Source: a virus. Taken from it: DNA of 42,338 nt. Within the stretch, counting starts at the first letter, position 1, and each line of letters begins with the position of its first letter. A program made the translations under genes and the position numbers. The notes beneath the pieces were generated by a model that was not told the DNA's origin, did not search any database, and saw only the letters and a program-made list of their open reading frames with translations. Positions 3,466 to 42,177 of this stretch are shown one piece after another. The DNA lies in IMG/VR virus record IMGVR_UViG_3300045988_018117, positions 1 to 42,338 of that record; one strand, written 5' to 3'.

Positions 3466-6400
3466 TTACGGTGCTCGCCACCGGTTTTTCAGATCATCCA
3501 CAGATTTTACCTTCTGCTCCGTTTTCATAATCGCCTCGACGCCCTGTCGCACGTCCTTCTCATCGTAGCCGTGCTCCAGCATCTCCTTATAGATCATCCG
3601 CGCCGTCTTTGTGTCGTTCTCCTTCTGCGCCAGATAGAGCAGCTCGCACCAGCGCTTTCTGTTCCCGGCGCTCCTGTCCATACGGTAGATGGCCTTTTCC
3701 ATCTCGAACATCAGACGCACATTACCGGTTTCGCTGGCAATAGTCCGAGCCAAAGACCACACGTCGCGGCCAAGGTTTGCCACGCTGACGCCAAATATCT
3801 TGCTCACAGCGGTCAAAAGCTGCTTGCAAGCGTAAGCGGTGGTATATTTTCCCTCGCCGGTAACGCTGCTGTACATCGTCTGGGTCGCCCGCACAATGTC
3901 ACCGATGGCATCTGCGTCCATTCGCTCTACGGAGTAGCCTTGCAGGATGGAGATCAGATCCTTTGCATAGGGCAATCTTCCGACCAGCGTAATGTTGCCC
4001 TTCAGGTTTCCTTCCAGCAAAACGTTCTTTGCCAGCTCTCCGAACCTCTCCTCATCTCCGCTGACACCGGTAAGCGCCGCGAAGAAACGCGCCCCATACT
4101 TTTTCTCCTTGTCATCGTCGCGCAGCGCGTCAACAAGGGACTGTGCCAGCGAGTTTATAAGATCCGTTACCAACAGCGCACCCACGGAGCGCTTCAACTG
4201 CTTCAATGCAGCGCTCCGCTTCTGCATGTTGGTTTCAAAACGCCATGCGTCATAGGAGCGCATCAGGATATTCAGACTTTTCAGCGGCTCACCCATAAAG
4301 GACGTGGCCTGCCGCGTCAGCGCGTCGCTGTCCCGCATGATCTGCGTCCGCTGCATGATGCCGTCTACCACCTGCGTTTGGTCGATGACGTCCGTAAACA
4401 GCTCCGCCACCTGCCGGTAATACGCATCGCTGCCTACTTCCGTTTTTGTGTCTGCCGCCACCTGCCACTCGCAGGCATTCCAGATCCTGCCCCATGTAAT
4501 GGCGTCCGCATTGGCAGCGGCCCGGCTGCTCCAGTCGCTCAGTTTGTCCATAACGCTGTCGCTGGAGCCGTACACCTCTCGCGCAATGGTGTACCGGCTT
4601 CCCTGGTCAAAGCCGGACGAATCCTTGATGCCTGCAATCGCCGCCCAGTTTCTGGCCTTGTCCCAGCCGTTGCCGTCCGTCACGCCTTTTGCGATGCCTT
4701 TCGCCATGTTCTCCGGGTCGAGGATCACCGCCGCCCGGAAAAATGCCGTGGGCTGCTGGATGACCACGCGCCAGTTGGAGCCGACAGCCGCGCCCTTGGT
4801 ATTGCCCACGATCCGCTCAATGCTTCTGGTGGTGTCGCTGGAATTTTTCACCATGCCGTTCTGCATATCCCGCATCAGATTCCGCCAATACTTCTGTGCC
4901 GCGTCTCCGTATACGCCGGACAACACCTGCTGCATATTCCGCCCCGTCAGATTCCCGCTGCTGTCGCGGTACCGATAGTTGTACAGCCGGTTGATATCCT
5001 CCATCGGTGCCAGCAGCGTGGCGTATTTGATCATGTCGCTGGCGTTCTGCGCAAACACGTCATACGCACCGCCGATGTCCAGCGCATTGCTGGCGTTGGG
5101 AGTTAGCGCCTTTGCGCTGCCCATGTTCTTGATCGACCGTGCGTTATCCGCGTCCTTCTCCACGCTGGAGGCCACTGCATCCTTTGCGGCTTTGATGGGC
5201 CAGTAATGCTCCTCCTTGAATTTCCGATAGCCGTACACCTGCATACTGGCGTTGTTGCCCCACTCCGCCAGTTTGGTGCTTGCCAGCTTTTGCAGACCGT
5301 TTGCCACCTTGACCTGCTCCGGCGTCAACACAGAGGTGATGGCCTTGATGTCATCCTCCGTCAGCAGAATGTTGTCGTTCCCGCGCGGGATCTCTTTCAG
5401 CTTGCCGTCCCGCTTGATCTCCGGCTGCACAATGCCGCCCACCGTCAGATGGTGCATGGCCTGTTCGCCGCGCCGCGCCAGATTGTACAGGTTCATGATC
5501 TGGTCGGTGGTCAGCGTCAACTCCACGCCCCGGCCTGTGGTGAAAGTGTGCCGGTCAAAGCGTTTTTTATACACGTTCTTGTCCAAGAACTTTTCCGCCT
5601 CGCGCTGCACATCCCTCAGCATCCAGTGCTGCTGATCCTGCGCGTTCCGCAGCGTTCTGTACAGTTGCTTACCTGCATCGCCGTAGGCAGAGAAGAACGT
5701 ATACGGGTCTGCCATATCCAGAGAAATTTTGCGGTTTCGCCGCTTCCTGCCCATGCTGTCCGCCGCAAATCGCTCCGCCCACTCGCTGGTGCTCTTGTAC
5801 TTCGCGGAGGAGAGCGTCTTGTCGTAGGTTGTCAGCGTCGTTTCAATGGCACGGATCGCGTTCCACACCGTTTCCAGCTCGGACACGCTCATATCCGCAA
5901 TGCGCTTGCCGCCCAGCGCGGACAGAGAATCCAGCAGACCGCCGCTTTCCGTCAGCGCCGGGTCTACTACCATATTCCCCTCGTTGTCCAGAATATCATC
6001 ATAGATCTGCTTGAGCCGGTCTGCCTCCAGCGTCCTTCTGGTGGGGTCGCCGTCCGCGTTCTTCCGCAGCCGCCCGTTTTCGTCGTAGCTGTACGCGCTT
6101 TCCAGATTGATATTTTGCAGCAGGCTTGCCACCGCCACACGTAGCTTCTCCGGAATGTGCTGCTTGTCCGTTGGATTCACCAACTTACGGGAGATCGCGC
6201 CGGTGTGCCGTGCGATCCGCGCCCGCATCGCCGTTGCTTTCCGTTTTTCGCTGCCCTTCTTGGTCTTCTCGTTGTACTTCTTCCGCAGCGCGTTTACGTC
6301 GTCCCGGCGCTTCTGCCGCTCACGGGACAGCATCTCACGCACACGACCGACGGCCTCCTGCTTCTCCAGCGCACGCCTGTCTGCATACGTTTTCTTCTGC

Positions 6401-9400
6401 CGCACCTGATCGGAAATCATTCCGTCAATGATGTCGTTGGCAATCTCCTGAATGGCTGCATCACGGTAGCTGTCGAAGGGGTTTTCATAGATGGTGTCCA
6501 TGCTGTCCAGCACGTCACCTATTTGCAGCAGCATGTCCGCCTCGGTATACACGTCGCTGGGGAAATAGCCCTCGCCAAACATCTCCGCCAACTCGCCATA
6601 CACGGTATCCACAGACGTGCCATTGGACTTGTTCAGTTTCAGCGTTCCCATGTGGCTCTTTCGAAAATCGCCGTAGTTTGCCATGTCCCCGCCGAACTGG
6701 ATGGTCTGCCGCTTCAAATAGTCCCGAATTTCCAGCAGCTCCGCGCCGTACTCCGTCAGCTCCGTCGTGTTGTCCACGATGGCCTCCGCCACGGCCTTGG
6801 CGTGTGGCATCAAATCCTCCATCGTCACGTCCCGCTTCATCACAGCCTTGGCAAGCGCGTCCATCTCGCTTTGCACGTCCGCGTATTTCACATCGCTGCC
6901 GTACTCGCGGATGAGATTCTGCCCCAGCTTTTTCACGTCCCGCAGCACCACGGACGGTTCCTTGCTGATGCGCATTTCGCCCTTCAGCTCCTGCACCCGC
7001 TGTTTCAGCGCCTCATTCTGCTTGGCCAGCGCGTTTCGCTCCTTCTTGAGTTCCCGCGCCTCGCGCTCCACCTCCGCCGTATTCTTGAGCTGATACCGGA
7101 ACTTTTCAAGCTCCGATACATACGGTGTCGTTCCATTCTCAAAGTACGCCTTTATGTCGTTGATGACCTTGCTGCTGTGCGTCCCCTTCGGGTATTCCGT
7201 GCTGGACACGGTATTCCCGTTGGCGTCATCCAAATCCAGAATGACTTCGCCTCTGTTTTTGCTAATGAAGTCAGCCAGAGAATCAAACTGCGCCTTTGTG
7301 GGCATGACCGACAGGTTGATACCGCCGCTTTCCGGGCTGATACGGATATTCCCCTCGCCCATAAACTGTACCATCGCGCCGCTGTAATCGTCCCCGCCGT
7401 AATCAAGCCCCAGCGCGCCACGGATATTCCGATGATCTACGGTTCGGTAGCCGCCGGGGCCACCATCATGCCGTCCGGAGAAGTCCAGTTTCGTGCCGTC
7501 CGTGGTGATGTACCCGGTCTCGTTCCAGCTGTACGTCTTGCCGAAAAATTCCTTTGCGGATTTTACATGATCTTTTTTCTCCGCCTCCGAGTAAGCTTTC
7601 AGCGAAAACCGTATATCCGGGTCGCTGGTTGGGTTGGGATTGTCCACCCGTTTAATCTGCTCTGGAGAAAACGCAATGTAAACTGTATCAGGTGTCCCGT
7701 TGTCGTCCATGATCTCATCCGTTGACCTTACAATGATACCATCATGTCCGCCATCTTTTGCCCAACGCTTCAAATCCGAATGCCTTACGTCCGCCTGCCC
7801 AGCGGCGCTTCCCCAGCCGCTATCCTCAACAATGAGAGGATTTCGCAGATTCAAATACGCCTCCATTACATAACCACCGCCAAGTTTGCCGGATGCATTT
7901 CCAGCATACCCTTGCGCATCTTCCTTGTACGGAGTGAAATAAAATCCCAGATCACCACCTCGAAGCGGGTAATTTTGCTCGATTTTGTCTGGGTCAAATA
8001 CAGTAAATTCCGCGTCTGTTCCGTGATAGACAGTAAGAAGCCGCCCCTCCGCATCCCGCACCTTGCTGTCCTTGAAAAACTCCTGCTGCTGTTCAGAGAG
8101 CTTCCGCCCGGTGCTATCCGTGGATTTCAGTGAAAACTGCGGCTTGACATTCTCGCCATCGGTGAGTATACTGGTACCAGAAGCATTCCCCCGCTGAGCG
8201 CCGGAGTTTCCGGAAGAGCCGTTAATTTGGGGAGTGCTTCTTTCTTGCATTTCCCCGATATTGTAGACAATGCTCCCATCCTTACCCAGCGCAACGGAAA
8301 TGCGCGTTCGATAATACTTTCCGTCAAAATCCATGAAATATGCCGTTCGATAGTTCCAGCCGTCTTTTGCCATGTCACCGTGACGCCCACCAAAGTCAAG
8401 GACAGTCTTTCCTCCGCGCTCAGAAACCTTAATGAGTTCGTCGATGTGCGCAGCCGCATTTGCTTTACGTTCAAATGCTTTTTCATCCAGCGTTCGACCA
8501 TTGTTGTCGTAAATGCTACTCAGCTTCCCGGCAGATTTACTTGTCAGGAGGAGAACATCGCCGTCCTCGGCAATCAGGCGAACATCCTCGTGATTGCGGA
8601 TTTTGCCGTTGATATAGCTTTCCAGCTGTTCACTCCACGCCTTGGGATCGTTGCCAAATAACACTTGTCTGTCCGCCTGAACGTATTTCATGCCATTGGG
8701 GAACTGCTTGATCTGATACTTTGCACCGTCGCCCTCACCGGCGGCGGTTTTTGCTTTCTCCGCCTGCCGCTCCGCCGCGTCAAAGGCCACCTGCCATTGC
8801 TTGGCAATGTTTTCCAGCTCGGCAAAGTCCTTGCCGTATGCCTCCTGCGCCGCCATGTCGCGGTATTTGCCGGTGAACGCAGTTTTGACCTTGGCAAGAA
8901 ACTCCTTCAGGCTGTCCAGCAGCTTCTGCGCCGCCGTCCGGTTTTCCTTGGAGAACTTGGCAAACAGGTCTGCGTCGTCCAGCATATCACCGGCGAAGTC
9001 CGCCGCAAGCTCGTCCATCACCTCGTCACGCGTCAGCGTCACGCCCTCCTGCTCCGCCGTCTCCATGTACCGCTCCACGATCTCCGCCTCTGTGTCCGCG
9101 CCGTTTTCGCGCATCTTGTACTCCACCGCCGACTGCCGGAACTTCCGGTATTCAGCGGGGGACAAGTCCTGCATCCGGTGGGTGATCTCATGTGCGGTCA
9201 CGTTCAAAAGCGGATTGTAGCTGTCAGCGGCGATTTGGATGAGATTCTGCTCTTTGATGTACTGGCCGTTGGCTCTGCCGCCAAGCACCTGATCCACGAT
9301 CTCGATCCGGACGCCCAGCTTCTTGCCCCATGTGTTCAGCGTGGCGGCGGTGTCCTTCTTTGCTGTGATCAGATACCGACTATACTCGTTGTCCGCCAGA

Positions 9401-11115
9401 CCGGCACCCGCCGTGGTTGTCACGGACGCTACCTCCGCGTTCTCCCGTGCCACTTGCGCCCGTGCGTCCTCCAGCCCAGCATTGTACGCCGCGTACCGCT
9501 GCTCCGGCGTCAGCATCGCCGCGTACTTGCCCTTGGCCTTGTCCGCTTCGATGCCGTTCAGTCCCGCGTTGTACACGCTGGAAAATCCTGCATACAGGGA
9601 AGGTGCGTCCTCTGCCGTCCGGCTCATTTCCTGATACGCCTTTTGCCCGTTTTCCAAAAAGCCGCCTACGCGCTTCTCTGCGCGTTTCTGCACAGCAGGG
9701 GAGGGAGGTGTAACCCTCTGCGTTTCCTGCGTCACCTCGCGGCTTGCAAGCCCCGCGATGTCACGTTTTACCTGACTGATCGGCTTGTCCGTGTCCAGTT
9801 TCACGCCGGTGCGCTGCTCCAGCACCTCCACCGCCACCGGGTCACGGGCGATAGCCGCCGCCTGATTGCCGGTGATGGTCTCGCCCCGCGTCACAGCCTC
9901 CACCGCCTCCGCAGACTTTGCGTTCATCTCCGGCGCGGTGTTCTGCTGCACATCTCGGTTGTACTGCGCTTTTGCTGCGCCATACGCTACACGGTTGGCA
10001 AGGGTATTCACGCCCATTGTGCCGCCGGACAGCAATCCGCCGACGATAGCGCCTCCAGCAAACTCTTCGGCAGCGGTTCCCGGATCAAAAATCGCGTTTT
10101 CGTTTACGCCAAAATACGGATTATCGGCATCATATACCGCATTTTGCAGGGACCGGTCGATGATGCCCTGCAGCACCTCCTCCTTGCCTTCGTCCAGCAT
10201 GGTGTTCACCAGCGTCCGCCACGCCGCCTGGTTTGCCACCTTTCCTGGCAGGTTTTGGATACCGCCGCTGATCTCGATCTCCGACCCCAGCAGCGCGTTC
10301 CCGATGGCGTACAGCGCGGCCCGTTTATCATCTACGCCCTCCGTCTTTGCGTCGTTGTAGCTGTGAGAAAAGATCTGCGCCGCGCTGGAGAGATAGTTGG
10401 GGTCCTTGGCCCGTGCCGCCGCCACATTCTTCAGCGTCTGCACCAGCGCGGGGGAACTCTTGGCCGCCGTCTGCGTTGCCAATGTGCCAGCCTTTGCCGC
10501 CGCGCTGGTGCCGCCGGAGGCGAAGGCGATGGCCAGCGAGGGCAGCGCCTCCACCGCAGACGCCAACAGATTCTCCCCCTTCTCCGCATACTGTCCGCCC
10601 TTGGCGGTGTTTTCCGCGTACTTCTGCTGCAGCCCCTCCTGTTCGAGAGCGATATTCTCGTCCCATGCGTTGAAAAAACCGCGCTCGTTCATCGGTGCGA
10701 TATTTCCAAACAGCGCGTTCCAGCCCTTGGCCACCGTGCGCTCACCAAAGGCCAGCGGCGTGGTCACATCTCGTGCGATAGCCGAAAGACCCATGCCTCC
10801 CGCTTTCAGCAGGCCCTTTCCATAGTTGTACCCCTTGTTGGCCTGCTTGTCCGCACCATAATTCCCCGCGCCAAGGGCGGAAATATTGTAGTCGTTTTGC
10901 TTTTTGGAGCTGAAATATTCCTTGTTGGCCTGCATTGAAGCCTTGTCCGTATGCCATGCAACGCCGTCAGAGGAGCCTTTGCTCGTATCAACACCGACAT
11001 ATGTGGCCTTTGGGCCGCGCTTATCCTGCGCTGCAGTGGGGCCAAGCGTTCCGGTATATGTTACTTTTCGCTTTTTCCCGTTTCGTTCGGTATTCCCAAC
11101 GTAAGTTACCTTCAT
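3466..11115 (-). CDS. Giant (2549-aa) polyvalent, probably virion-packaged/ejected, multidomain protein
   Basis: Uninterrupted ORF with RBS TAGGAGG, and the last large gene of the late operon. It contains an HExxH motif, an H-Y-E ADP-ribosyltransferase-like module, further conserved-looking modules, coiled coils and a C-terminal region of about 900 aa. Confidence 0.9.
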   Translation of the reverse strand: MKVTYVGNTERNGKKRKVTYTGTLGPTAAQDKRGPKATYVGVDTSKGSSDGVAWHTDKASMQANKEYFSSKKQNDYNISALGAGNYGADKQANKGYNYGKGLLKAGGMGLSAIARDVTTPLAFGERTVAKGWNALFGNIAPMNERGFFNAWDENIALEQEGLQQKYAENTAKGGQYAEKGENLLASAVEALPSLAIAFASGGTSAAAKAGTLATQTAAKSSPALVQTLKNVAAARAKDPNYLSSAAQIFSHSYNDAKTEGVDDKRAALYAIGNALLGSEIEISGGIQNLPGKVANQAAWRTLVNTMLDEGKEEVLQGIIDRSLQNAVYDADNPYFGVNENAIFDPGTAAEEFAGGAIVGGLLSGGTMGVNTLANRVAYGAAKAQYNRDVQQNTAPEMNAKSAEAVEAVTRGETITGNQAAAIARDPVAVEVLEQRTGVKLDTDKPISQVKRDIAGLASREVTQETQRVTPPSPAVQKRAEKRVGGFLENGQKAYQEMSRTAEDAPSLYAGFSSVYNAGLNGIEADKAKGKYAAMLTPEQRYAAYNAGLEDARAQVARENAEVASVTTTAGAGLADNEYSRYLITAKKDTAATLNTWGKKLGVRIEIVDQVLGGRANGQYIKEQNLIQIAADSYNPLLNVTAHEITHRMQDLSPAEYRKFRQSAVEYKMRENGADTEAEIVERYMETAEQEGVTLTRDEVMDELAADFAGDMLDDADLFAKFSKENRTAAQKLLDSLKEFLAKVKTAFTGKYRDMAAQEAYGKDFAELENIAKQWQVAFDAAERQAEKAKTAAGEGDGAKYQIKQFPNGMKYVQADRQVLFGNDPKAWSEQLESYINGKIRNHEDVRLIAEDGDVLLLTSKSAGKLSSIYDNNGRTLDEKAFERKANAAAHIDELIKVSERGGKTVLDFGGRHGDMAKDGWNYRTAYFMDFDGKYYRTRISVALGKDGSIVYNIGEMQERSTPQINGSSGNSGAQRGNASGTSILTDGENVKPQFSLKSTDSTGRKLSEQQQEFFKDSKVRDAEGRLLTVYHGTDAEFTVFDPDKIEQNYPLRGGDLGFYFTPYKEDAQGYAGNASGKLGGGYVMEAYLNLRNPLIVEDSGWGSAAGQADVRHSDLKRWAKDGGHDGIIVRSTDEIMDDNGTPDTVYIAFSPEQIKRVDNPNPTSDPDIRFSLKAYSEAEKKDHVKSAKEFFGKTYSWNETGYITTDGTKLDFSGRHDGGPGGYRTVDHRNIRGALGLDYGGDDYSGAMVQFMGEGNIRISPESGGINLSVMPTKAQFDSLADFISKNRGEVILDLDDANGNTVSSTEYPKGTHSSKVINDIKAYFENGTTPYVSELEKFRYQLKNTAEVEREARELKKERNALAKQNEALKQRVQELKGEMRISKEPSVVLRDVKKLGQNLIREYGSDVKYADVQSEMDALAKAVMKRDVTMEDLMPHAKAVAEAIVDNTTELTEYGAELLEIRDYLKRQTIQFGGDMANYGDFRKSHMGTLKLNKSNGTSVDTVYGELAEMFGEGYFPSDVYTEADMLLQIGDVLDSMDTIYENPFDSYRDAAIQEIANDIIDGMISDQVRQKKTYADRRALEKQEAVGRVREMLSRERQKRRDDVNALRKKYNEKTKKGSEKRKATAMRARIARHTGAISRKLVNPTDKQHIPEKLRVAVASLLQNINLESAYSYDENGRLRKNADGDPTRRTLEADRLKQIYDDILDNEGNMVVDPALTESGGLLDSLSALGGKRIADMSVSELETVWNAIRAIETTLTTYDKTLSSAKYKSTSEWAERFAADSMGRKRRNRKISLDMADPYTFFSAYGDAGKQLYRTLRNAQDQQHWMLRDVQREAEKFLDKNVYKKRFDRHTFTTGRGVELTLTTDQIMNLYNLARRGEQAMHHLTVGGIVQPEIKRDGKLKEIPRGNDNILLTEDDIKAITSVLTPEQVKVANGLQKLASTKLAEWGNNASMQVYGYRKFKEEHYWPIKAAKDAVASSVEKDADNARSIKNMGSAKALTPNASNALDIGGAYDVFAQNASDMIKYATLLAPMEDINRLYNYRYRDSSGNLTGRNMQQVLSGVYGDAAQKYWRNLMRDMQNGMVKNSSDTTRSIERIVGNTKGAAVGSNWRVVIQQPTAFFRAAVILDPENMAKGIAKGVTDGNGWDKARNWAAIAGIKDSSGFDQGSRYTIAREVYGSSDSVMDKLSDWSSRAAANADAITWGRIWNACEWQVAADTKTEVGSDAYYRQVAELFTDVIDQTQVVDGIMQRTQIMRDSDALTRQATSFMGEPLKSLNILMRSYDAWRFETNMQKRSAALKQLKRSVGALLVTDLINSLAQSLVDALRDDDKEKKYGARFFAALTGVSGDEERFGELAKNVLLEGNLKGNITLVGRLPYAKDLISILQGYSVERMDADAIGDIVRATQTMYSSVTGEGKYTTAYACKQLLTAVSKIFGVSVANLGRDVWSLARTIASETGNVRLMFEMEKAIYRMDRSAGNRKRWCELLYLAQKENDTKTARMIYKEMLEHGYDEKDVRQGVEAIMKTEQKVKSVDDLKNRWRAP
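7576..8118 (-). other. ADP-ribosyltransferase-like module of the giant protein (about aa 1000-1180)
   Basis: LLTVYHGT (H1031), GFYFT (Y1059) and VMEAYLNLRNP (E1085) match the H-Y-E ART pattern seen in phage polyvalent proteins. Confidence 0.5.
9178..9192 (-). other. HEITH (HExxH) zincin-type metallopeptidase motif within the giant protein (aa 642-646)
   Basis: Translated directly: VTAHEITHRMQDLS. Confidence 0.5.
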
Positions 11116-23791: not shown

Positions 23792-25234
23792 TTAATAGGT
23801 CTGATAAAATGCGTACCGGCTGGGCCTGTACTCGTCCTCTGTGTCCAGCGGCGAATAGGGACGCTCCACGATGTGTCCCATGTCCCTTGGCCCGATAGGG
23901 TTTTTCATACAGACGTACCGCAGCTGGTCGTAGATGTGATCCTCGCCGTCCGTGTCGATGTCCTCCACGTCTGTCTGGTCATAGACCAGGTTCGGAACCG
24001 TCCGTATGAAGTTCTTGCAGGTGTTGAACACATACAGCATCGGCACGCCGTCTGCGTCGAACGCCAGCCGGTGGTGAATCTGCATCTTGCCGTTGATCCG
24101 TGCGTGGTCGCCTTTTTCAAAGTAGACACGCTCACGCTCCATCAGAGCACCCACGCTCTCCGTGCCGTCGCTCTGCCAGATCGCCGGGTCGCCCACGCGG
24201 TGTATGTCCCGCCCCCGCAGGTTTGGGTCGTCCGCCTCGATGCGCCGTATCTCCTGCGCTACCTTGGTCGGCTCCCACATCACGCCACGGTTGGGCGTCC
24301 CGTTGCAGCCGTAAAACTCCCGGATATGGTACATCCGCCTGTTTCTGTCTACCGCGTACCACCCCACGGAAAAGGGACGGGAGTAGCCCCAGTCCAGCCC
24401 GCACCAGATCACCCAGTCCTCCGGTATCCGAAACGGCTCGATGACGTGGGTCTGCTTCCTGTCCAGATAGTGCTCCCGGTCGTTTTTCCACTCCGTGAAC
24501 ACCTGCCCCTCGAAGCTGTCCCAGTTGCCGTACAGCAGGGCGTTACGCTCCGCCTCCGGCATACTGGCCAGCCGCTGCACATATAACGGATCATTCTCCA
24601 TCAGGATCTTGTTGTCAAACACCGAGGACGGCACGAATATCCGCTGCTGCTGCCCCGTGTGCTTTTTCCCGTCCGGCGTATACCACACCGCCTCCTCTGT
24701 GATGGGCTGCATCGGCGGTGCCGCCGTGATAAACCGCTCCTTGACCCATCCATGCCCGATGTTGCCGGGGTTGGCGGTGGAGCGCATATAGACCCGTGTC
24801 CCCGCCCCGTTGGGACGATTACGGGATTTCAGGTAGTCGTACTCCTCCTGAGTAAAATGCGTCAGCTCATCAAAAGCGATAAAGTCATACGCCTGCCCCT
24901 GATACTGTATCTTGTCCTGCGGCCTGTTCATACTCCCGAACACGATTTGCGCACCGGAGGGAAACCGCCATGTGTGGTTGCTGCCGTTGTACCGCGCCTT
25001 TGGATACGCACGGGGGTAGTAGTTCAGCGTCTTGTCGATCAGCTCCCGCAGCTGAGGGAATGTCTTGCGCAGGATCAGCGCCTTGTACCACGGTATATGC
25101 ACCTGCCGCAGCGCTTCGATGACCAGCGCGTCGCTCTTGCCGCCGCCCGCCGCCCCACCATACAGGGCTTCATATTCCGGCCTTGCCATAAATACGGCCT
25201 GCCGCTCCTGCGGTTTCCACACGATCTCAGGCAT
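23792..25234 (-). CDS. terL: Terminase large subunit
   Basis: Walker A GGAAGGGKS and Walker B YDFIAFDELTHF, plus a C-terminal nuclease-like half. Overlaps the TerS end. Confidence 0.9.
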   Translation of the reverse strand: MPEIVWKPQERQAVFMARPEYEALYGGAAGGGKSDALVIEALRQVHIPWYKALILRKTFPQLRELIDKTLNYYPRAYPKARYNGSNHTWRFPSGAQIVFGSMNRPQDKIQYQGQAYDFIAFDELTHFTQEEYDYLKSRNRPNGAGTRVYMRSTANPGNIGHGWVKERFITAAPPMQPITEEAVWYTPDGKKHTGQQQRIFVPSSVFDNKILMENDPLYVQRLASMPEAERNALLYGNWDSFEGQVFTEWKNDREHYLDRKQTHVIEPFRIPEDWVIWCGLDWGYSRPFSVGWYAVDRNRRMYHIREFYGCNGTPNRGVMWEPTKVAQEIRRIEADDPNLRGRDIHRVGDPAIWQSDGTESVGALMERERVYFEKGDHARINGKMQIHHRLAFDADGVPMLYVFNTCKNFIRTVPNLVYDQTDVEDIDTDGEDHIYDQLRYVCMKNPIGPRDMGHIVERPYSPLDTEDEYRPSRYAFYQTY

Positions 25235-25655
25235 CCGTCTTTACCTCCGGCATCAGCACCACGCCGATCTCCTGCCGGTCTGCCTCCGGCGCTTTCTCGC
25301 GCCACCCGAAATTACAGCTCAGACTAAACTTTGCGCCGTTCGCGCCGTCCCGGTCATATAACCGCGCCTCTGCGTATTCTTCGCACCGCGCCTTTGCTCG
25401 CGTGACCGTGTCCGCGAATTCCGGCCTTGCCTGATAATCAATCAACGCCTGCCGCCCGGTAAAGCCTAATGCCAGAGCCAGCCCCGTGATCGTCGGAGGC
25501 TTTGCGTTTATGATGATAGGTATCCCATACTTATCCCGCACCGTGCATCCGTCGTCCCCGATAAACGGCTCTCCCTCGCACGCCTTAAAGTAAGCATCAA
25601 TCGCCGCCTGCATCGCCTTTACGCTTTTCCATTTTCTCGGCGCTCCTGCCGGCAT
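25227..25655 (-). CDS. terS: Terminase small subunit
   Basis: 142 aa. The N-terminus PRKWKSVKAMQAAIDAYF...PPTITGLALALGF is an HTH typical of Firmicutes phage TerS. Confidence 0.75.
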   Translation of the reverse strand: MPAGAPRKWKSVKAMQAAIDAYFKACEGEPFIGDDGCTVRDKYGIPIIINAKPPTITGLALALGFTGRQALIDYQARPEFADTVTRAKARCEEYAEARLYDRDGANGAKFSLSCNFGWREKAPEADRQEIGVVLMPEVKTDA

Positions 25656-26157
25656 ACGCTCACACCCTTTCTTTCCTGACGCAGCGGCCTCCCACCACTG
25701 GCCCTTGTCATTGCCGCGTCCTTCCCCGGCTTTCGCCTCGCCTGTATTCCATGTCTCCCCTGGGTCACATTTTTAAGAGGTGCGGGAAGTCCTGTTTTAT
25801 GTAAGCAGACTATTTGGGCCGCATCCCTTACAGCGGTCTGCCAGCGCATCGCCTGTTGTTTTACACAATCGGTCGGGTGCCACCACGCATCCATACTGTC
25901 CTACACAGCGGCTTTGTCCTAAGACAACCGCCACCACACCGCATCCACGCCTCGGATTTCTTTCGGCACGCCGGCACCCGAACCAACCACGGACTTTTCA
26001 GCCCTGCGCCGGTACGTCGGTCGCATCCGTTTCTTCATTCACAGCCGGAGCCAGCCAAATAATTATTATTCGTCCTGCCGCTTTCGTACAGCGCACAGGA
26101 AAGACCACTTCCGCAGGCTTACGCTCCGTGCGGCTGCGAGGCAAGGGGCCACGCCTA
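25656..26157 (-). ncRNA. Candidate large structured non-coding RNA (possibly ROOL/GOLLD-class), immediately 3' of the tRNA-like gene
   Basis: About 500 nt with no credible ORF, lying between two - strand operons. It has many helices readable on the - strand, including GAAA-capped hairpins (e.g. GGGCU-GAAA-AGUCC at 25991-26004). There is a long-range 11-bp pairing of 25871-25881 with 25973-25984, and hairpins at 25805-25841, 25908-25931 and 26074-26099. Confidence 0.45.
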
Positions 26158-26230
26158 TGGTGCAGACGGCTGGACTCGAACCAACGACATACCTCCTGGC
26201 GCGGTGCTCTACCGACTGAGCTACGTCTGC
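26158..26230 (-). tRNA. tRNA-like gene with canonical acceptor, D-arm and T-arm and encoded CCA, but a shortened non-canonical anticodon arm (possible pseudo-tRNA or atypical tRNA)
   Basis: - strand reads GCAGACG UA GCUC AGUCGGUA GAGC A CCGCGCCAGGAGGU AUGUC GUUGG UUCGAGU CCAGC CGUCUGC A CCA, 73 nt. Only ACC/GGU can pair in the anticodon region. Confidence 0.6.
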
Positions 26231-26244
26231 ATATTGCTCCATCC

Positions 26245-26266
26245 GGGCGGAGCCGAAGCCCCGCCC
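26245..26266 (-). other. Stable 9-bp hairpin with UUCG tetraloop in the 5' leader of the tRNA-like gene
   Basis: - strand reads GGGCGGGGC UUCG GCUCCGCCC. The G:U pair exists only in the - strand RNA (A/C mismatch on +), which supports - strand transcription. Confidence 0.6.
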
Positions 26267-26370
26267 ATCAGGAAAGAAGGGTGAAAAGAAAAAGAATGGA
26301 GATGCAGAGTTCGCCCCTGCACCCCCACGTTATCACATCTTTTTTTGTTGTTGCATTTCGTTGTGCAACA

Positions 26371-26595
26371 TCACCTAATTTCTGCGTTTACATACGGTGC
26401 ATACTCTTCTTTTATCGCACATTCTTTCAGCGGGCAGTACCGGCAGTTTTTAGCAAAGGGGCACTCGCGCCGTTCTGCTCTGGATATACAGCGAGATACA
26501 GTGGATGTGCTTACACCAAAATGCCGTGCAATCGTGCTCATGCGCCATCCGCACTCAAAGTATAGTCTCAAGTATTCGACCGTCTGCTCTTTCAC
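26371..26595 (-). CDS. Small HTH DNA-binding protein (sigma region-4 / Psq-like), last gene of the early operon
   Basis: GTG start in a GTGA overlap with the upstream stop (RBS GGAGGAGG). WRMSTIARHFGVSTSTVSRCISRAE is an HTH. Confidence 0.6.
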   Translation of the reverse strand: MKEQTVEYLRLYFECGWRMSTIARHFGVSTSTVSRCISRAERRECPFAKNCRYCPLKECAIKEEYAPYVNAEIR

Positions 26596-26786
26596 CCTAC
26601 CACCTCCTCCGGGAAGAATGTCTCCCGCACCCCGCCGCACTCCGCCACGATGTACCGCCCCTTCGGATGCACGTACACCACCGTGCCCTTGCGGATGGGG
26701 AACCGCTTTTCATCGTTGGCGCCGGAGCCGGGGTACTCGCTCGGCAGCGTCATAAACCGCGCCCGGATCGTGTCACCCTTCTGCAT
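26592..26786 (-). CDS. Hypothetical protein (64 aa)
   Basis: ORF in the operon, overlapping both neighbours. Confidence 0.6.
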   Translation of the reverse strand: MQKGDTIRARFMTLPSEYPGSGANDEKRFPIRKGTVVYVHPKGRYIVAECGGVRETFFPEEVVG

Positions 26787-27105
26787 CGCCGCCGTCCTTT
26801 TTCTCGCCGTAGGAGCAGAAGTCGTCCGGCTCTACACACACCGCATCGCCGGAATACCCGCGGGCATTTGTCTTTGGCTCCGTATGTAGGTAACACAAAC
26901 CGTTTTGGTAGTTGCGATAGTGCTTGCAGTCCTTGCAGCGCACCACCGGAGCAACATCAGCTGCAGGGATGGCATTTATGAGTTCCTTGATGTTCTTCAT
27001 GCCAAACCCATAGTCAACTCCGCCGAAGTCGTCTGTTTCGCATACATCCGCATCGGCATTGTCGAACTGTTTAAACACTGCCGATCTTTTAATATATTCC
27101 GCCAT
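26773..27105 (-). CDS. Hypothetical Cys-rich protein (110 aa)
   Basis: ATG at 27105 after RBS AAGGAGGAA. Contains a CKDCKHY...C...C motif. Confidence 0.65.
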   Translation of the reverse strand: MAEYIKRSAVFKQFDNADADVCETDDFGGVDYGFGMKNIKELINAIPAADVAPVVRCKDCKHYRNYQNGLCYLHTEPKTNARGYSGDAVCVEPDDFCSYGEKKDGGDAEG

Positions 27106-27271
27106 CACAATTCCTCCTTATCTCCTGTTCCATAATGCCCAACGGCGTGTGCTTCCGCATCCATGCGTACACCCACTCCCGGCTCTCCGCCGTGCCCATC
27201 GGCTTCTTCTTCGGCGGCAGTTCGCCGTTCTTCGCGGCGGTGGCCGTGGGGTTGTGCTTGTGCTCTCCCAT
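27089..27271 (-). CDS. Hypothetical small protein (60 aa)
   Basis: Start at MGEHKHN in a TGATG overlap with the upstream stop. Confidence 0.5.
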   Translation of the reverse strand: MGEHKHNPTATAAKNGELPPKKKPMGTAESREWVYAWMRKHTPLGIMEQEIRRNCDGGIY

Positions 27272-29354: not shown

Positions 29355-30836
29355 TCAAAAAATATCCCAGTCGCCTTTCTCACCTGACTTCTCATCGCCG
29401 AAATGCTTTTTTGTCACGGCAATAGGGAATTGCTCAATTTCAGAACTCCACCGGCAGCACTCTGCTCCGTGTATTCTCGCCCAGCAGACGTTAAAGCCCG
29501 AAATGCCGTCGAACAAACTCCCCAGCGTCGCGCCCTCCGGCAAATACCGCGCCATACGCCGCAGCATCCAGTCCCAGAAGGGCAGGGCGATGGAGTTGCC
29601 CAGCGCCTTGTACTTCGGGCTGTCCGCGTCCTTGTGTTTCTTGCCCTTCTCATCCGTCCAGTCGCCAATGTCCACCCATCCGTCCGGGTATCCCTGCAAG
29701 CGGGTACATTCCAACGGTGTCAATCTGCGCACGACCATGTTTGTGATGGCAAGGTCTGTGCTGTCCTTAAAGTCGCGTTGTTTGCAGCTGCTTGCAACAT
29801 TGGCATCACGATAATCTCCAAACCCGTTCATCTGATATGTAAGCGGCACTTGGTTTCCACCTGTTCTCATTCGCGCTTGCAATGCCGGTACCTTCTCTCC
29901 GCACTCGCGGATGACATCACAGGCGTGTGTCATGTCCAGTGCCACCACCGGAGCCACCACAGCTGGTTTATTCCCGCCGCACTCAGCGTTCAGTGTAGGG
30001 GACAGTTCCTCTTGATAGCCGATGCTCCTCGCCTGTTCACTGTTGCCCAGCTTAAACCCAGCGCACACTACTGGCTGGTTGTTCCCGCTCATATCCGCCG
30101 CAGCGGTCAGCGTAGGTGCTCTGTCGTCTGTGCGGATCTCTGCACCGCCCTGCTGCGTCGCCATGCAGATCACTCCGCATGATGCTTGCCCCCTGCCGCT
30201 GCCAGCCGAAATGCACATTGCCTTTTCTTTGCTTGTAATCGGGTCTTGCGTCAAGTGGACCGAGATTGTGCAATCAGCACCCGCTCCAAAATCTCCGGCA
30301 GTTTCTTCCCCCGCCGCGCCGCTCTTCTCAAGATGCCCTGACACGCTTTCGCGGTCAAATTGTATTTCGGATGCGGTGTCTCCTCCAAAATCTGCGACAA
30401 CCGAGATACGACGACGGCGTTGGGGCACTCCCCAGTGTTGCGCGTCGTGAGTTCGCCACACCACGCTCCATCGTCCTCCCATTTCATCGTGGTACCCTCC
30501 CCAGGTAGGCCAGCCCTTTTCAGGCACTTCAATACCGGGGGCTTCCGGCTCGACGATTTTGATGATCTCTTCGAGCACGGCTGCGAAGTCTTTTCCTTTG
30601 TTGCTGCTAAAGGCTCCGACCACGTTTTCCCACACGAGATACCGAGGTCTAACCATGTCACCTGTCCGTCCATTCCTTTTGTCCGCCTCCCTCATTTCTT
30701 TTACGATGCGTACCTGCTCCATAAACAGGCCGCTTCGCGCTCCCGCCAAACCGGCGCGTTTCCCGGCGATGGATAGATCCTGTCTAACAAGGTGAACCAC
30801 CTGTAATACACCAAACGGGTTCAATCTCTGCCCCAT
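29355..30836 (-). CDS. DNA (cytosine-5) methyltransferase homologue, circularly permuted (motifs V-X then I-II) and lacking the catalytic Cys in this frame
   Basis: Motifs in ORF order: QDLSIAGKRAGLAGARSGLF (aa 19-38), ENV (69-71), QRRRR (139-143), RLQGYPDGW (379-387), GNS (413-415), then LFDGISGF (441-448) and SEIE (465-468). Confidence 0.8.
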   Translation of the reverse strand: MGQRLNPFGVLQVVHLVRQDLSIAGKRAGLAGARSGLFMEQVRIVKEMREADKRNGRTGDMVRPRYLVWENVVGAFSSNKGKDFAAVLEEIIKIVEPEAPGIEVPEKGWPTWGGYHDEMGGRWSVVWRTHDAQHWGVPQRRRRISVVADFGGDTASEIQFDRESVSGHLEKSGAAGEETAGDFGAGADCTISVHLTQDPITSKEKAMCISAGSGRGQASCGVICMATQQGGAEIRTDDRAPTLTAAADMSGNNQPVVCAGFKLGNSEQARSIGYQEELSPTLNAECGGNKPAVVAPVVALDMTHACDVIRECGEKVPALQARMRTGGNQVPLTYQMNGFGDYRDANVASSCKQRDFKDSTDLAITNMVVRRLTPLECTRLQGYPDGWVDIGDWTDEKGKKHKDADSPKYKALGNSIALPFWDWMLRRMARYLPEGATLGSLFDGISGFNVCWARIHGAECCRWSSEIEQFPIAVTKKHFGDEKSGEKGDWDIF

Positions 30837-31158: not shown

Positions 31159-31950
31159 TCAATTCCCCCACAGTGATACTTGGTTTTCGTCCGGCAGTAC
31201 AAGCATTTGCTCCTGCGCCTTCTGGCAAAAGTCCCGGCTAATCTCAAAGCCGTAGCCACGCCGTCCCGTTTCCATACAAGCACGCAGCGTAGACCCGCTT
31301 CCGGCGCATGGGTCAATGACCACATCTCCGGGGTCTGTGAATATGCCAATTAGCCGTTTCAGCAGCACAACAGGCTTTTGCGTGGGATGAATCTTTGGAA
31401 TGTCTTTCCCGTCGCGCCCCCACTCCTGCCAGTTGAAAACCATTCTTTTTTCTCCGTACATATCCGTGTTGCGGAACTTTGGCAGTTTGTCTCGGTACAA
31501 CACCACGGCAAACTCTGTCGCGCCGACAATACGCATATTCGCCTTTAGAACCTGCGCGGAATAATTTTTGATGAAAAACAGAGGATAGGACTTCATAAAA
31601 CCGTACCGCTTGCCATAGTCGATGACCGTCTGCATCTGCTCAAACGCGCAAAAGACAATCATAGCCGGTGCCTCGCCTGTTGCTTTCGGTTCTTTTTTCA
31701 AAAGGCGGGAGCAAAAGTGCATATACTCCGCGATTTTGAAATTCCCGTCTGAGTTGAAAAAAGACTTCTTGGCAAGGCGGCTTTCCCCGTTGGCGTTATC
31801 TCCGTCTTTGTACCACATAGGATTGCTGGCGTAAGCATTTGATCCGATATTGTACGGTATGTCCGCAATGACAAGCTGTGCCTTGGGAATGTTGTACTTC
31901 TTGAAGTTTTGGAAATTATCGTTGAATAACTGAACTTGCTGTTTACCCAT
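31159..31950 (-). CDS. DNA methyltransferase, N6-adenine/N4-cytosine type (beta class, N6_N4_Mtase family)
   Basis: Motif IV DIPY (VIADIPYNIG) precedes motif I VIDPCAGSGST. 263 aa. Confidence 0.85.
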   Translation of the reverse strand: MGKQQVQLFNDNFQNFKKYNIPKAQLVIADIPYNIGSNAYASNPMWYKDGDNANGESRLAKKSFFNSDGNFKIAEYMHFCSRLLKKEPKATGEAPAMIVFCAFEQMQTVIDYGKRYGFMKSYPLFFIKNYSAQVLKANMRIVGATEFAVVLYRDKLPKFRNTDMYGEKRMVFNWQEWGRDGKDIPKIHPTQKPVVLLKRLIGIFTDPGDVVIDPCAGSGSTLRACMETGRRGYGFEISRDFCQKAQEQMLVLPDENQVSLWGN

Positions 31951-41091: not shown

Positions 41092-42177
41092 ATGTCTACT
41101 TGTATAAAATGCGGCGTCCAACTGGTACCGGATGCCTTATATTGCCATATCTGCGGGAAAAAGCAGGTCACGGCCTCCCGCAAGGCGCTGAAACGCCCCA
41201 ATGGGTCAGGCACGGTGTATAAGCTGGGTGGGCGGCGGTCGCGGCCTTGGGTCGCCGCAAAAGACGGCGTGTATATCGGGTACTACGAGCGGAAGACGGA
41301 CGCGCTTGCTGCACTGGATCGGCTGGCAGGCCGTCCGCTGGAGGAAAAGTTCAATATGACCTTTTCCGAGGTGTTCACCGAATGGAAAGCCGAACACTAT
41401 CGGGAGATAGGGGAGAAGGGCGTGGAATCCTATGACAGAGCCTACGCTGTATGTGCGCCGCTGCACAACAAGAAATTTCGTGACCTGCGCACAAAGGACT
41501 TTCAAGCCATCATCGACAGCAACATGGCAAAGTCCAACTCCACGCTGTCTAAATACAAGCAGCTCATGACCCAGATGGCCCGCTGGGCCGTCCGTGAGGA
41601 GATTGCCACAACTGACTTTGCCAAATACGTCAAACTGCCCCAGCAGGTAAAAAAAGAAAAAGCCATCTTTACAGATGACGAAATCGCGCTATTGGAAAAA
41701 GACGGCTCCGACGCCGCCAAGATCGCCCTTATGATGATTTACACCGGTATGCGCATAGGCGAATTGTTCTCCCTTCCGCTGAAAGACTACCATGAATCGT
41801 ATGTGATCGGCGGCGAAAAGACAAAGGCCGGCAGAGACCGCGTTATTCCCATCCGACCGGAGGGCAGGAAGTATTTTGCATACTTCGCCTCCCGCGCCAC
41901 CGGCGACCTGCTTCTGTCCGGCTACGATGGGCAGCGCATCCCCGCCAATTACCGCAAGCGTGACTTCTATCCGTTGCTGGAAAAGCTCGGTATCCCAAAG
42001 CACACGCCCCACGCCACGCGCCACACCTTCGCAACATGGGCGAGAAATGCAGGCATCCAGCAGGAGATTTTGCAGAAGATCATCGGTCACGCAAGCTTCT
42101 CCACCACGGCGGATATTTACATCCATGCAGACGCGGAAAAGCTCATCTCCGCCGTTGAATCTGCAAGTAATTTGTAA
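41092..42177 (+). CDS. int: Tyrosine recombinase (phage integrase) with N-terminal zinc ribbon
   Basis: CIKCG...CHICG at the N-terminus. The C-terminal catalytic region has HATRHTFATW...GHASFSTTADIYIH (R, HxxR, Y). Adjacent to attR. Confidence 0.9.
   Translation: MSTCIKCGVQLVPDALYCHICGKKQVTASRKALKRPNGSGTVYKLGGRRSRPWVAAKDGVYIGYYERKTDALAALDRLAGRPLEEKFNMTFSEVFTEWKAEHYREIGEKGVESYDRAYAVCAPLHNKKFRDLRTKDFQAIIDSNMAKSNSTLSKYKQLMTQMARWAVREEIATTDFAKYVKLPQQVKKEKAIFTDDEIALLEKDGSDAAKIALMMIYTGMRIGELFSLPLKDYHESYVIGGEKTKAGRDRVIPIRPEGRKYFAYFASRATGDLLLSGYDGQRIPANYRKRDFYPLLEKLGIPKHTPHATRHTFATWARNAGIQQEILQKIIGHASFSTTADIYIHADAEKLISAVESASNL

Follow-up and report, generated by a model that had tools for sequence, protein, structure and literature searches.

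Evidence for a new structured RNA fused to the CCA end of a tRNA-like unit in phages of the human gut

What occupies the 715-nucleotide (nt) gap at positions 25656-26370 of the IMG/VR record IMGVR_UViG_3300045988_018117? The whole record of 42,338 nt was analysed as the window, and its coordinates are used throughout. It carries a temperate phage, a gut prophage with genes mainly on the minus strand, and the gap lies between the gene of an 89-amino-acid (aa) sigma-70 region 4/HTH protein (26371-26640) and the packaging gene terS (25227-25655, P22 gp3-type). A sequence-only reading had proposed one large minus-strand RNA of about 715 nt, ROOL- or GOLLD-like or else new, with an embedded tRNA-like gene. 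According to the present analysis, the gap is a composite of several separate parts on the minus strand rather than a single RNA, and it very probably holds a genuine gene for a new structured RNA, fused to a tRNA-like unit. The structured RNA on the minus strand, with its tRNA-like gene, in a phage and near tRNAs, was borne out by covariation, G.U pairs and the tRNA arrays of relatives, whereas the proposed size and class were not: the conserved RNA is about 300 nt long (about 373 nt with the tRNA-like unit). Homologues were compared in a conservation profile of 75 loci and in two alignments, A2 (56 diverse sequences) and A3 (96 distinct 5' halves). The two parts concerned are as follows.

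26158-26230, minus strand: tRNA-like unit with CCA (Rfam tRNA at 26161-26230, CCA at 26158-26160).
25858-26157, minus strand: conserved structured RNA of about 300 nt, defined by the conservation profile, alignments A2 and A3, and pair counts.

A coding explanation of the gap was rejected. None of the open reading frames (ORFs) of the gap, on either strand, had a Pfam or PHROG match, and 353 of the 364 indels between homologues were not multiples of three. Since the reading frame is lost between homologues and such matches are absent, the RNA region is considered noncoding; the earlier statement that 25656-26370 holds no credible ORF therefore stands. An ORF of 261 aa on the plus strand (25780-26565), antisense to the RNA and to the HTH gene, was also observed. 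It has no family match, its frame is lost in homologues, and it is best explained as a by-product of the C-rich antisense strand and its base composition, because two of the three plus-strand frames are open.

The tRNA-like unit matched the cloverleaf of the Rfam tRNA model (RF00005) at 26161-26230 on the minus strand, scoring 49.5 bits where the gathering score is 29. Its acceptor stem has 7 bp (GCAGACG/CGUCUGC), its D and T arms are canonical, the discriminator is A, and the CCA is encoded. Its anticodon region is aberrant: between the D and T arms there are only 19 nt to accommodate what should be a 17-nt anticodon arm plus a variable loop, which explains why ARAGORN made no tRNA call for this unit. 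The set of features expected of a functional decoder (5-bp anticodon stem, 7-nt loop, U33, and purine 37) was not found in it. The tRNA-like gene is thus present, as had been read, but it is not embedded in the RNA; its CCA abuts the first RNA helix at the 5' end.

This junction is a constant feature of the family. N-CCA directly adjoins the RNA start in 143 of the 152 full-length copies (about 94%), the exceptions reading CAA, CA or CCAA. Of 166 loci, 164 have an upstream unit of 72-122 nt that is closed by an acceptor stem of 7 bp; some shorter lengths obtained in this count are mis-detections. The upstream units fall into at least four unrelated acceptor-stem sequences. Some are tRNA-sized and were called by ARAGORN as Trp, Gly, Thr, Ile, Arg or Cys, and many share a common body with odd anticodon arms, as in the window; a 91-nt variant and a 112-116-nt unit resembling class II tRNAs were also found. 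In about 32 loci (including L089, 92 nt ending at L089:4342, and L090, L111, L158, L160, L163, and L169-L173), the unit is a 92-93-nt cloverleaf, GCGGCAU...AUGCCGU-ACCA, closed by an acceptor stem of 7 bp; GUAA caps one arm, and the loop of the 'T arm' reads GGCAGGA, not UUCGAAU. This unit had no Rfam or ARAGORN match. The acceptor and T stems covary between unit types and loci, and the anticodon arm is hypervariable and often non-canonical. Judged by these comparisons, what is kept in the upstream units is the acceptor/T-arm shape together with the CCA, the anticodon region being unlike that of a decoder. The base preceding the unit is usually U, and bacterial RNase P prefers U at the position before a tRNA.

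The secondary structure model of the RNA comprises the following elements, in which RNA position n corresponds to window coordinate 26158 - n.

RNA 2-6/15-19 (26139-26156), minus strand: P1, a 5-bp hairpin with an 8-nt loop, starting 1 nt after the CCA.
RNA 8-13 (26145-26150) with RNA 50-55 (26103-26108), minus strand: probable pseudoknot formed by the P1 loop, from class-specific complementarity.
RNA 21-24/42-45 (26113-26137), minus strand: P2, a hairpin with conserved GUAAG in the loop, from pair counts.
RNA 56-68/76-89 (26069-26102), minus strand: P3, a bulged hairpin with the loop GUACGAA, 98.5% paired.
RNA G69-G73 (26085-26089) with C142-C146 (26012-26016), minus strand: 5-bp loop-loop (kissing) contact between the P3 and P5a loops, 99.8% paired in 96 distinct sequences.
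RNA 102-106/111-115 (26043-26056), minus strand: P4, a short hairpin between A/U-rich and A/G-rich single-stranded linkers, 98.7-98.9% paired.
RNA 128-132/165-169 (P5), 133-140/147-153 (P5a), and 157-158/163-164 (P5b) (25989-26030), minus strand: three-way junction, from prediction.
RNA 170-192 (25966-25988) with 270-291 (25867-25888), minus strand: P7, the long-range helix closing the 3' domain, from pair counts on A2.
RNA 226-235/240-251 (25907-25932), minus strand: P9, a hairpin, 99.5% paired in A2.

Base changes across the homologues show the predicted fold for P1-P4, the loop-loop contact, P7, and P9. MAFFT sets classes A and B one column out of register in the 5' domain, and P1 and the pseudoknot were counted per class by script. 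P1 has five canonical pairs out of five and the 8-nt loop in nearly all of the 96 distinct sequences, and it occurs in three unrelated sequence classes (AGGCG/UGCCU, GAUGU/GCAUU, and UGCGU/ACGCC). For the pseudoknot, the script gave four contiguous pairs in GACC/GGUC and only three in the other classes; the bulged extensions GCUACC/GGGGC, GGUAUC/GAGCC, and, in L150, GGUGCC/GGACC were read by eye. P2 is missing from the short variant of class D (L150); its pair 23-43 occurs as G-C in 48 sequences and as A-U in 47. Pair 58-85 of P3 occurs as U-A, G-C, G-U, C-G, and A-U. P4 changes on one side only. The long-range helix P7 has 13 of 17 pairs that change on both sides, and four unrelated sequence classes of it stay complementary; four pairs of P9 change on both sides. 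The trinucleotide GGU (25933-25935) before P9 is present in all 146 members, of 152, in which the motif was found. The junction helices read ACGGA/UCCGU (P5), UGCG-A-CCG...CGG-CGCA (P5a), and CU-GAAA-AG (P5b, with a GAAA loop); they are 97.9-100% paired, and 11 of 14 pairs in A2 and 8 of 14 in A3 never vary.

The loop-loop contact was the only pairing kept from an all-against-all search for covarying columns, which was otherwise swamped by class linkage. At pair 72-143, 53 sequences have C-G and 43 have U-A, and neither mismatches nor G.U were seen. The pair was retained since each state is found on a common background, with otherwise identical intervening sequence (e.g., L132 vs. L136). ROOL and GOLLD are characterised by homo-oligomeric nanocage assembly; the loop-loop contact here could lie within one molecule or between molecules. 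Three helices noticed by the sequence-only reading were confirmed by covariation, namely the hairpin at 26074-26099 (P3), the hairpin at 25908-25931 (P9), and the 11-bp long-range pairing of 25973-25984 with 25871-25881 (P7). A fourth, GGGCU-GAAA-AGUCC at 25991-26004, holds in part, but homologues have an extra U and its UCC belongs to P5.

The 68 nested pairs of A2 were canonical in 95.0% of cells, compared with 32-52% when the partners were slid. Changes on both sides were seen in 23 pairs (6-8 in the slid controls), and the covariation score was 0.272 (at most 0.079 in the controls). Of 500 shuffles of A2, none equalled the alignment in the share of cells paired, in cells changed on both sides, or in covariation score, which are three of the five measures, and 12 reached the count of pairs changed on both sides. 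The pairs of A3 were 98.9% canonical, compared with 32-47% when slid. Covariation in homologous loci, named beforehand as a way to check the proposed RNA, was therefore present in both alignments, with pair counts well above those of the slid controls. Fixed G.U pairs (e.g., A2 columns 117-124, 196-344, and 71-88) would be A.C mismatches if read on the other strand, which places the RNA on the minus strand.

A BLAST search against 50,697 phage records found two unannotated human-faecal GenBank phages, which share only about 25894-26234 with the window at 85-88% identity. Exact-pattern scans of IMG/VR with three independent anchors returned 86, at least 117, and at least 117 contigs, respectively; in total, the RNA was found in at least 150 IMG/VR contigs, from which the 152 full-length copies were recovered. 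A scan of one genome per species found the RNA in only 3 of 185,579 species genomes, all of them contigs of metagenome-assembled genomes (MAGs), and two of these are human-gut Oscillospiraceae/Oscillibacter MAGs. Taken together, the matches in phage records, IMG/VR, and species genomes indicate that the element is phage-borne, and the hosts are likely Oscillospiraceae. The third MAG (L156, CAZIQF010000008.1) is labelled Staphylococcaceae, unlike the other two; this label may be a binning or labelling error. In the 75-locus profile, the common unit starts with the 5' end of the tRNA-like gene and reaches as far as about 25860, with almost invariant sequence from 26160 to about 25990.

Two genomic contexts were distinguished. 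In temperate phages of about 40 kb, the tRNA-like unit and the RNA lie upstream of terS/terL genes of several types, separated from terS by spacers and insertions that vary from 100 to 700 nt. In phages of 60-90 kb, they are part of a tRNA array in the order tRNA-Thr, tRNA-like unit, RNA, tRNA-Gly(UCC), and tRNA-Met; in one of these (L001), tRNA-Gly(UCC) begins about 13 nt past the RNA. The arrays are followed by genes for proteins of 91 aa, about 380-390 aa, and 347 aa, which were read by eye as putatively HU-like, cysteine-desulfurase-like, and integrase-like, and no terminase is found there. Classes of the 5' domain are found in free combination with those of the 3' domain and with the various upstream units, and every 3' class occurs together with one and the same terS family. 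Domains of the RNA are shuffled modularly among unrelated gut phages. The two contexts and the free combination of classes argue against a terminase leader or a cos/pac site and for an autonomous RNA module. As a separate observation, the arrays of L001, L005, L007, L027, L031, L033, L046, and L083 contain tRNA-like genes with 2- or 4-base ARAGORN 'anticodons', as well as 270-480 nt of conserved noncoding sequence that separates tRNA-Gly(UCC) from tRNA-Met and may encode additional RNAs.

The remaining parts of the gap flank the fused gene on both sides.

26349-26370, minus strand: inverted repeat after the stop codon of the 89-aa HTH gene.
26296-26328, minus strand: terminator-like hairpin of 14 pairs followed by a U-rich tract, from the terminator scan, moderately conserved in related loci.
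26245-26266, minus strand: hairpin GGGCGGGGC-UUCG-GCUCCGCCC containing a single G.U pair and ending 14 nt before the tRNA-like unit, from the sequence.
About 25745-25851, minus strand: lineage-specific insertion of about 105 nt with the direct repeat ACAGGCGA on its flanks, from lower occupancy in the profile.
25656-25744, minus strand: 5' leader of terS, including a GGC-GAAA-GCC hairpin (about 25729-25738), another stem, and a ribosome-binding site, from the sequence.

The hairpin at 26296-26328 could mark the end of the early/regulatory unit or act as an attenuator ahead of the RNA. The UUCG hairpin, which the sequence-only reading had counted among the helices of the large RNA, is present and recurs upstream of the tRNA-like unit in many loci of the ~40 kb phages, but it is located 5' of that unit; it is also visible in a sub-threshold Rfam SorY alignment and is possibly a 5' stabilising or processing hairpin. 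Another helix of that reading, at 25805-25841, is real but lies within the insertion, whose bounds are approximate and which is missing from many relatives (e.g., L022 and L009) and does not belong to the conserved RNA. In the terS leader, the profile showed high conservation at 25714-25744 and 25670-25684 across loci with various terS genes, and the conserved hairpin region may be a separate control element for terS.

In the proposed explanation, the minus-strand transcript would be a chimera of a tRNA-shaped unit and the ~300-nt RNA, with N-CCA abutting the first helix. The tRNA-shaped unit would serve as a processing and/or stabilising handle, with RNase P cutting on its 5' side; in the tRNA arrays, the RNase P cut at the following tRNA-Gly would set the 3' end of the RNA. 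The 5' hairpin and pseudoknot would shield the 5' end of the RNA if a cut occurred after the CCA. The near-invariant block of P3 and the three-way junction, tied by the loop-loop contact, is likely to be the surface that binds a conserved partner, from host or phage, on which the RNA would probably act in trans. Its position suggests expression with the late genes or the tRNA island during productive growth. By analogy with what is suspected for ROOL and GOLLD, the partner would most plausibly belong to tRNA or translation biology. Belief in this full model, with trans action and processing by tRNA enzymes, only slightly outweighs doubt, in distinction to the much firmer claim of a new RNA gene.

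Several points weigh against this explanation or parts of it. The transcript, its processing, and its stability are features that we infer. Most of the covariation comes from a few sequence classes and thus from few independent events, which also holds for the pseudoknot, whose support is moderate. No pair of the three-way junction changes on both sides, and its fold rests on prediction; since the junction hardly varies, the alignment is no test of it. The folding energy of the 715-nt gap gave z = -6.85 on the minus strand and -2.13 on the plus strand with only 20 shuffles, and the former value rests on the flanking hairpins and the tRNA as well. For the 300-nt core, the value is unremarkable (z = -1.22), as 21 of 200 shuffles fold equally well. 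Because the core is no more stable than its shuffles, folding energy was not used, and the argument is based on covariation. For RNase Z, CCA acts as an anti-determinant, which bears on the separation of the RNA from the tRNA-like unit. No sigma-70-like promoter was found on the minus strand in 25000-27200, and the terminator-like hairpin stands just upstream of the RNA; transcription of the late genes may thus depend on readthrough or on a promoter specific to the phage. Furthermore, no minus-strand terminator between the RNA and terS was found by eye in the ~40 kb phages or by the scan in the window, so that the RNA could act there as a 5' leader.

A cis-acting 5' leader of the late (terminase) operon, working for example through processive antitermination, stabilisation of the mRNA 5' end, or control of translation, is accordingly the first alternative to be weighed. 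The RNA lies directly upstream of terS/terL in the window and in many ~40 kb phages with no terminator before terS, the terminator-like hairpin just upstream would suit readthrough control, and the sigma-70 region 4/HTH fold of the upstream 89-aa protein is typical of late-gene regulators. This alternative is nevertheless rather unlikely. The 60-90 kb phages carry the RNA in tRNA arrays followed by genes that look HU-like and cysteine-desulfurase-like, not by a terminase; different downstream genes accompany the same RNA, while one terS family accompanies every 3'-domain class; and the distance between the RNA and terS is variable.

The order of strands in the 5' domain calls for comparison with ribozymes. 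Theta ribozymes, which are minimal members of the hepatitis delta virus (HDV)-like group, sit beside tRNAs in gut phages, and 4.5% of those tRNAs encode CCA (PMC10879173). The RNA resembles them in lying immediately 3' of a phage tRNA in gut Caudoviricetes and in the strand order of its pseudoknot. It differs in being about 300 nt long (five times larger), in lacking P3/L3, in following an encoded CCA, and in having its conserved core far from the junction; theta ribozymes are small, have a full P1/P1.1/P2/P3/P4 core, and mostly follow tRNAs without encoded CCA. The nested double pseudoknot of the HDV-like and theta ribozymes was not found, given the 8-nt P1 loop, the lack of P3/L3, and the absence of any HDV-family match.

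Under the corresponding alternative, the RNA would be a ribozyme or a tRNA 3'-end module that self-cleaves after the CCA or binds ACCA through GGU and thereby matures, masks or presents the 3' end of the unit. The zero spacer between CCA and P1, maintained in 143 of 152 copies across unrelated tRNA-like units, is in its favour, as are the HDV-like order (P1 5', pseudoknot 5', P1 3', hairpin, pseudoknot 3') and the GGU of every copy in which the motif was found. GGU in RNase P RNA binds the RCCA end of tRNA. The theta ribozymes adjoining phage tRNAs provide a precedent (PMC10879173). These points are outweighed by others, and the alternative is unlikely. No equivalent of P3, L3 or P1.1 is present, with only 8 nt between the P1 strands, and Rfam gave no HDV, hatchet, glmS or other ribozyme match at E<=10. 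The junction-side part is the least conserved (at least four classes), and the +1 base may be U, G, A or C. CCA is nearly always encoded here, compared with 4.5% of theta-associated tRNAs (PMC10879173). Many upstream units look unfit for decoding, so that maturation is unlikely as the primary purpose. The GGU before P9 could pair with the ACC of the acceptor end; this is only a lead, because the CCA-to-CAA variants show no compensating GGU change, which also speaks against the ribozyme or module.

A related and bolder possibility, which seems rather doubtful, is that the locus represents a new RNA device, an ornate ~300-nt RNA whose function is linked to the ACCA with which a tRNA mimic ends at its 3' side. 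If so, a self-cut would release a tRNA-shaped decoy with a free CCA, or the invariant GGU would clamp or present that end. Such a device would subvert a host factor acting on acceptor ends (tRNA-targeting abortive-infection toxins, CCA-adding or repair enzymes, or the ribosome), and the hypervariable anticodon arms would reflect an arms race, not decay.

The assignment of the RNA to a known family was examined using Rfam 15 cmscan (4227 families) on the whole window at gathering scores, on 25400-26700 at E<=10, and on 14 other members at E<=1 to 5. In all of these, only tRNA was found, with no ROOL (RF03087) and no GOLLD (RF01998); the ROOL/GOLLD membership suggested by the sequence-only reading was thus not upheld, and its fallback, a new RNA, is favoured, no catalogued family having matched. 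The candidates raiA, OLE, HEARO, tmRNA, RNase P, T-box, and the catalogued ribozymes were rejected for want of a match to the Rfam models. Sub-threshold Rfam matches to Plastid-ycf2 (antisense of the tRNA), SorY, L20 leader, and YrlA (a different tRNA) were attributed to chance, and an abiF-like match at 25754-25789, within the insertion, was not significant (E 0.97). Likenesses seen by eye to RNase P RNA, T-box, the SRP Alu domain, group I/II introns, the 5' end of 23S rRNA, tmRNA, and permuted tmRNA had no model support, nor did the short resemblance of GAAAAGUUCCG to the RNase P CR-I motif. No description of the RNA was found in the literature, a statement that excludes two 2026 preprints on language-model mining of noncoding elements. 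In large screens of viral structured RNAs, no reported motif is longer than 151 nt (PMC10690425).

A very divergent ROOL or GOLLD RNA missed by the Rfam covariance models was considered very improbable. ROOL RNAs are roughly 580 nt long, compared with about 300 nt here. ROOL and GOLLD are encoded by phages and prophages, in many cases close to tRNA islands; in GOLLD, the 3' region is conserved and the 5' region variable, tRNAs are sometimes carried, and many members exceed 800 nt (PMC12286853). The genomic setting is shared, as the RNA was found in a temperate phage with an adjacent tRNA-like unit and with tRNA arrays in relatives, and the 5' domain is variable here too, as in GOLLD (PMC12286853). 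Further likenesses are an elaborate fold with a probable pseudoknot and loop-loop contacts and the lack of an obvious protein partner. Against this stand the absence of a match at E<=10 over 1.3 kb or in the 14 other members and the fact that no common sequence motif was recognised. In addition, the RNA is fused without a spacer to CCA in most copies, a trait that does not define ROOL or GOLLD, and it has so far been found only in human-gut phages with Oscillospiraceae-type hosts.

A DNA-level site (cos/pac packaging or recombination) or a decaying, functionless tRNA-array remnant is largely refuted and hardly credible: the location just upstream of terS, the triple occurrence of GGAUGCG in the window copy, and the degenerate neighbouring tRNA-like genes would suit it, but compensatory changes keep strand-specific G.U-containing helices, which are unexpected for a duplex DNA site, the element also occurs far from any terminase with RNA classes independent of the terS type, about 100 nt are near-invariant in at least 150 contigs, which argues against decay, and the third GGAUGCG is missing from other classes. 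Phages with a P22 gp3-type terS carry their pac site inside the terS gene, and a cos/pac site was rejected on the terminase-free contexts and the strand-specific covariation.

The new RNA fused to a tRNA-like unit also has partial parallels among other tRNA-linked RNAs. The tRNA cluster of phage T4 encodes two stable RNAs (species 1 and 2) of about 120-140 nt, of unknown function, that are matured from tRNA precursors; they are likewise non-tRNA RNAs inside a phage tRNA cluster, are unrelated in sequence, and, to our knowledge, have no CCA-end fusion. In MALAT1-mascRNA and the MHV68 TMER transcripts, a tRNA-shaped module is joined to an RNA, and tRNA-processing enzymes define the ends of the partner. 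These systems are eukaryotic or herpesviral and use RNase P/Z and Pol III, whereas such use of the module in the present RNA is a conjecture. tmRNA and bacterial Y RNA (YrlA) also combine a tRNA-like domain with pseudoknots or other structured domains; unlike the RNA here, tmRNA builds that domain from its 5' and 3' ends, with the CCA terminal. The tmRNA mode of ARAGORN was negative, Rfam gave no tmRNA or Y RNA match, and no Ro/Rsr gene was seen among the window ORFs scanned. On the best reading of these sequence comparisons, the RNA represents a new family among the loosely defined ornate phage RNAs of tRNA islands, with the CCA-end fusion as a new feature.

Natural RNAs that are both large and intricately folded are uncommon, and every one of them has led to new biology; ROOL, GOLLD, and OLE proved to form RNA-only assemblies. 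The class described here is compact, abundant, and gut-phage-borne, and its constant CCA-end fusion offers a handle on why ornate phage RNAs occupy tRNA islands. With about 300-370 nt and a defined model, it is suited to cryo-electron microscopy, self-cleavage and RNase P assays, and pull-downs. Phage annotation now leaves the locus blank or calls a doubtful tRNA.

Beyond the gap, the window encodes terL (23792-25234) next to terS, a P22-like portal, a capsid protein, and an integrase (41092-42177). Two DNA methylase genes, of the C5-cytosine and the N6/N4 type, were observed on the minus strand of the early region (29355-30836 and 31159-31950), and the tail region contains, also on the minus strand, a single ORF of 2549 aa (3466-11115).

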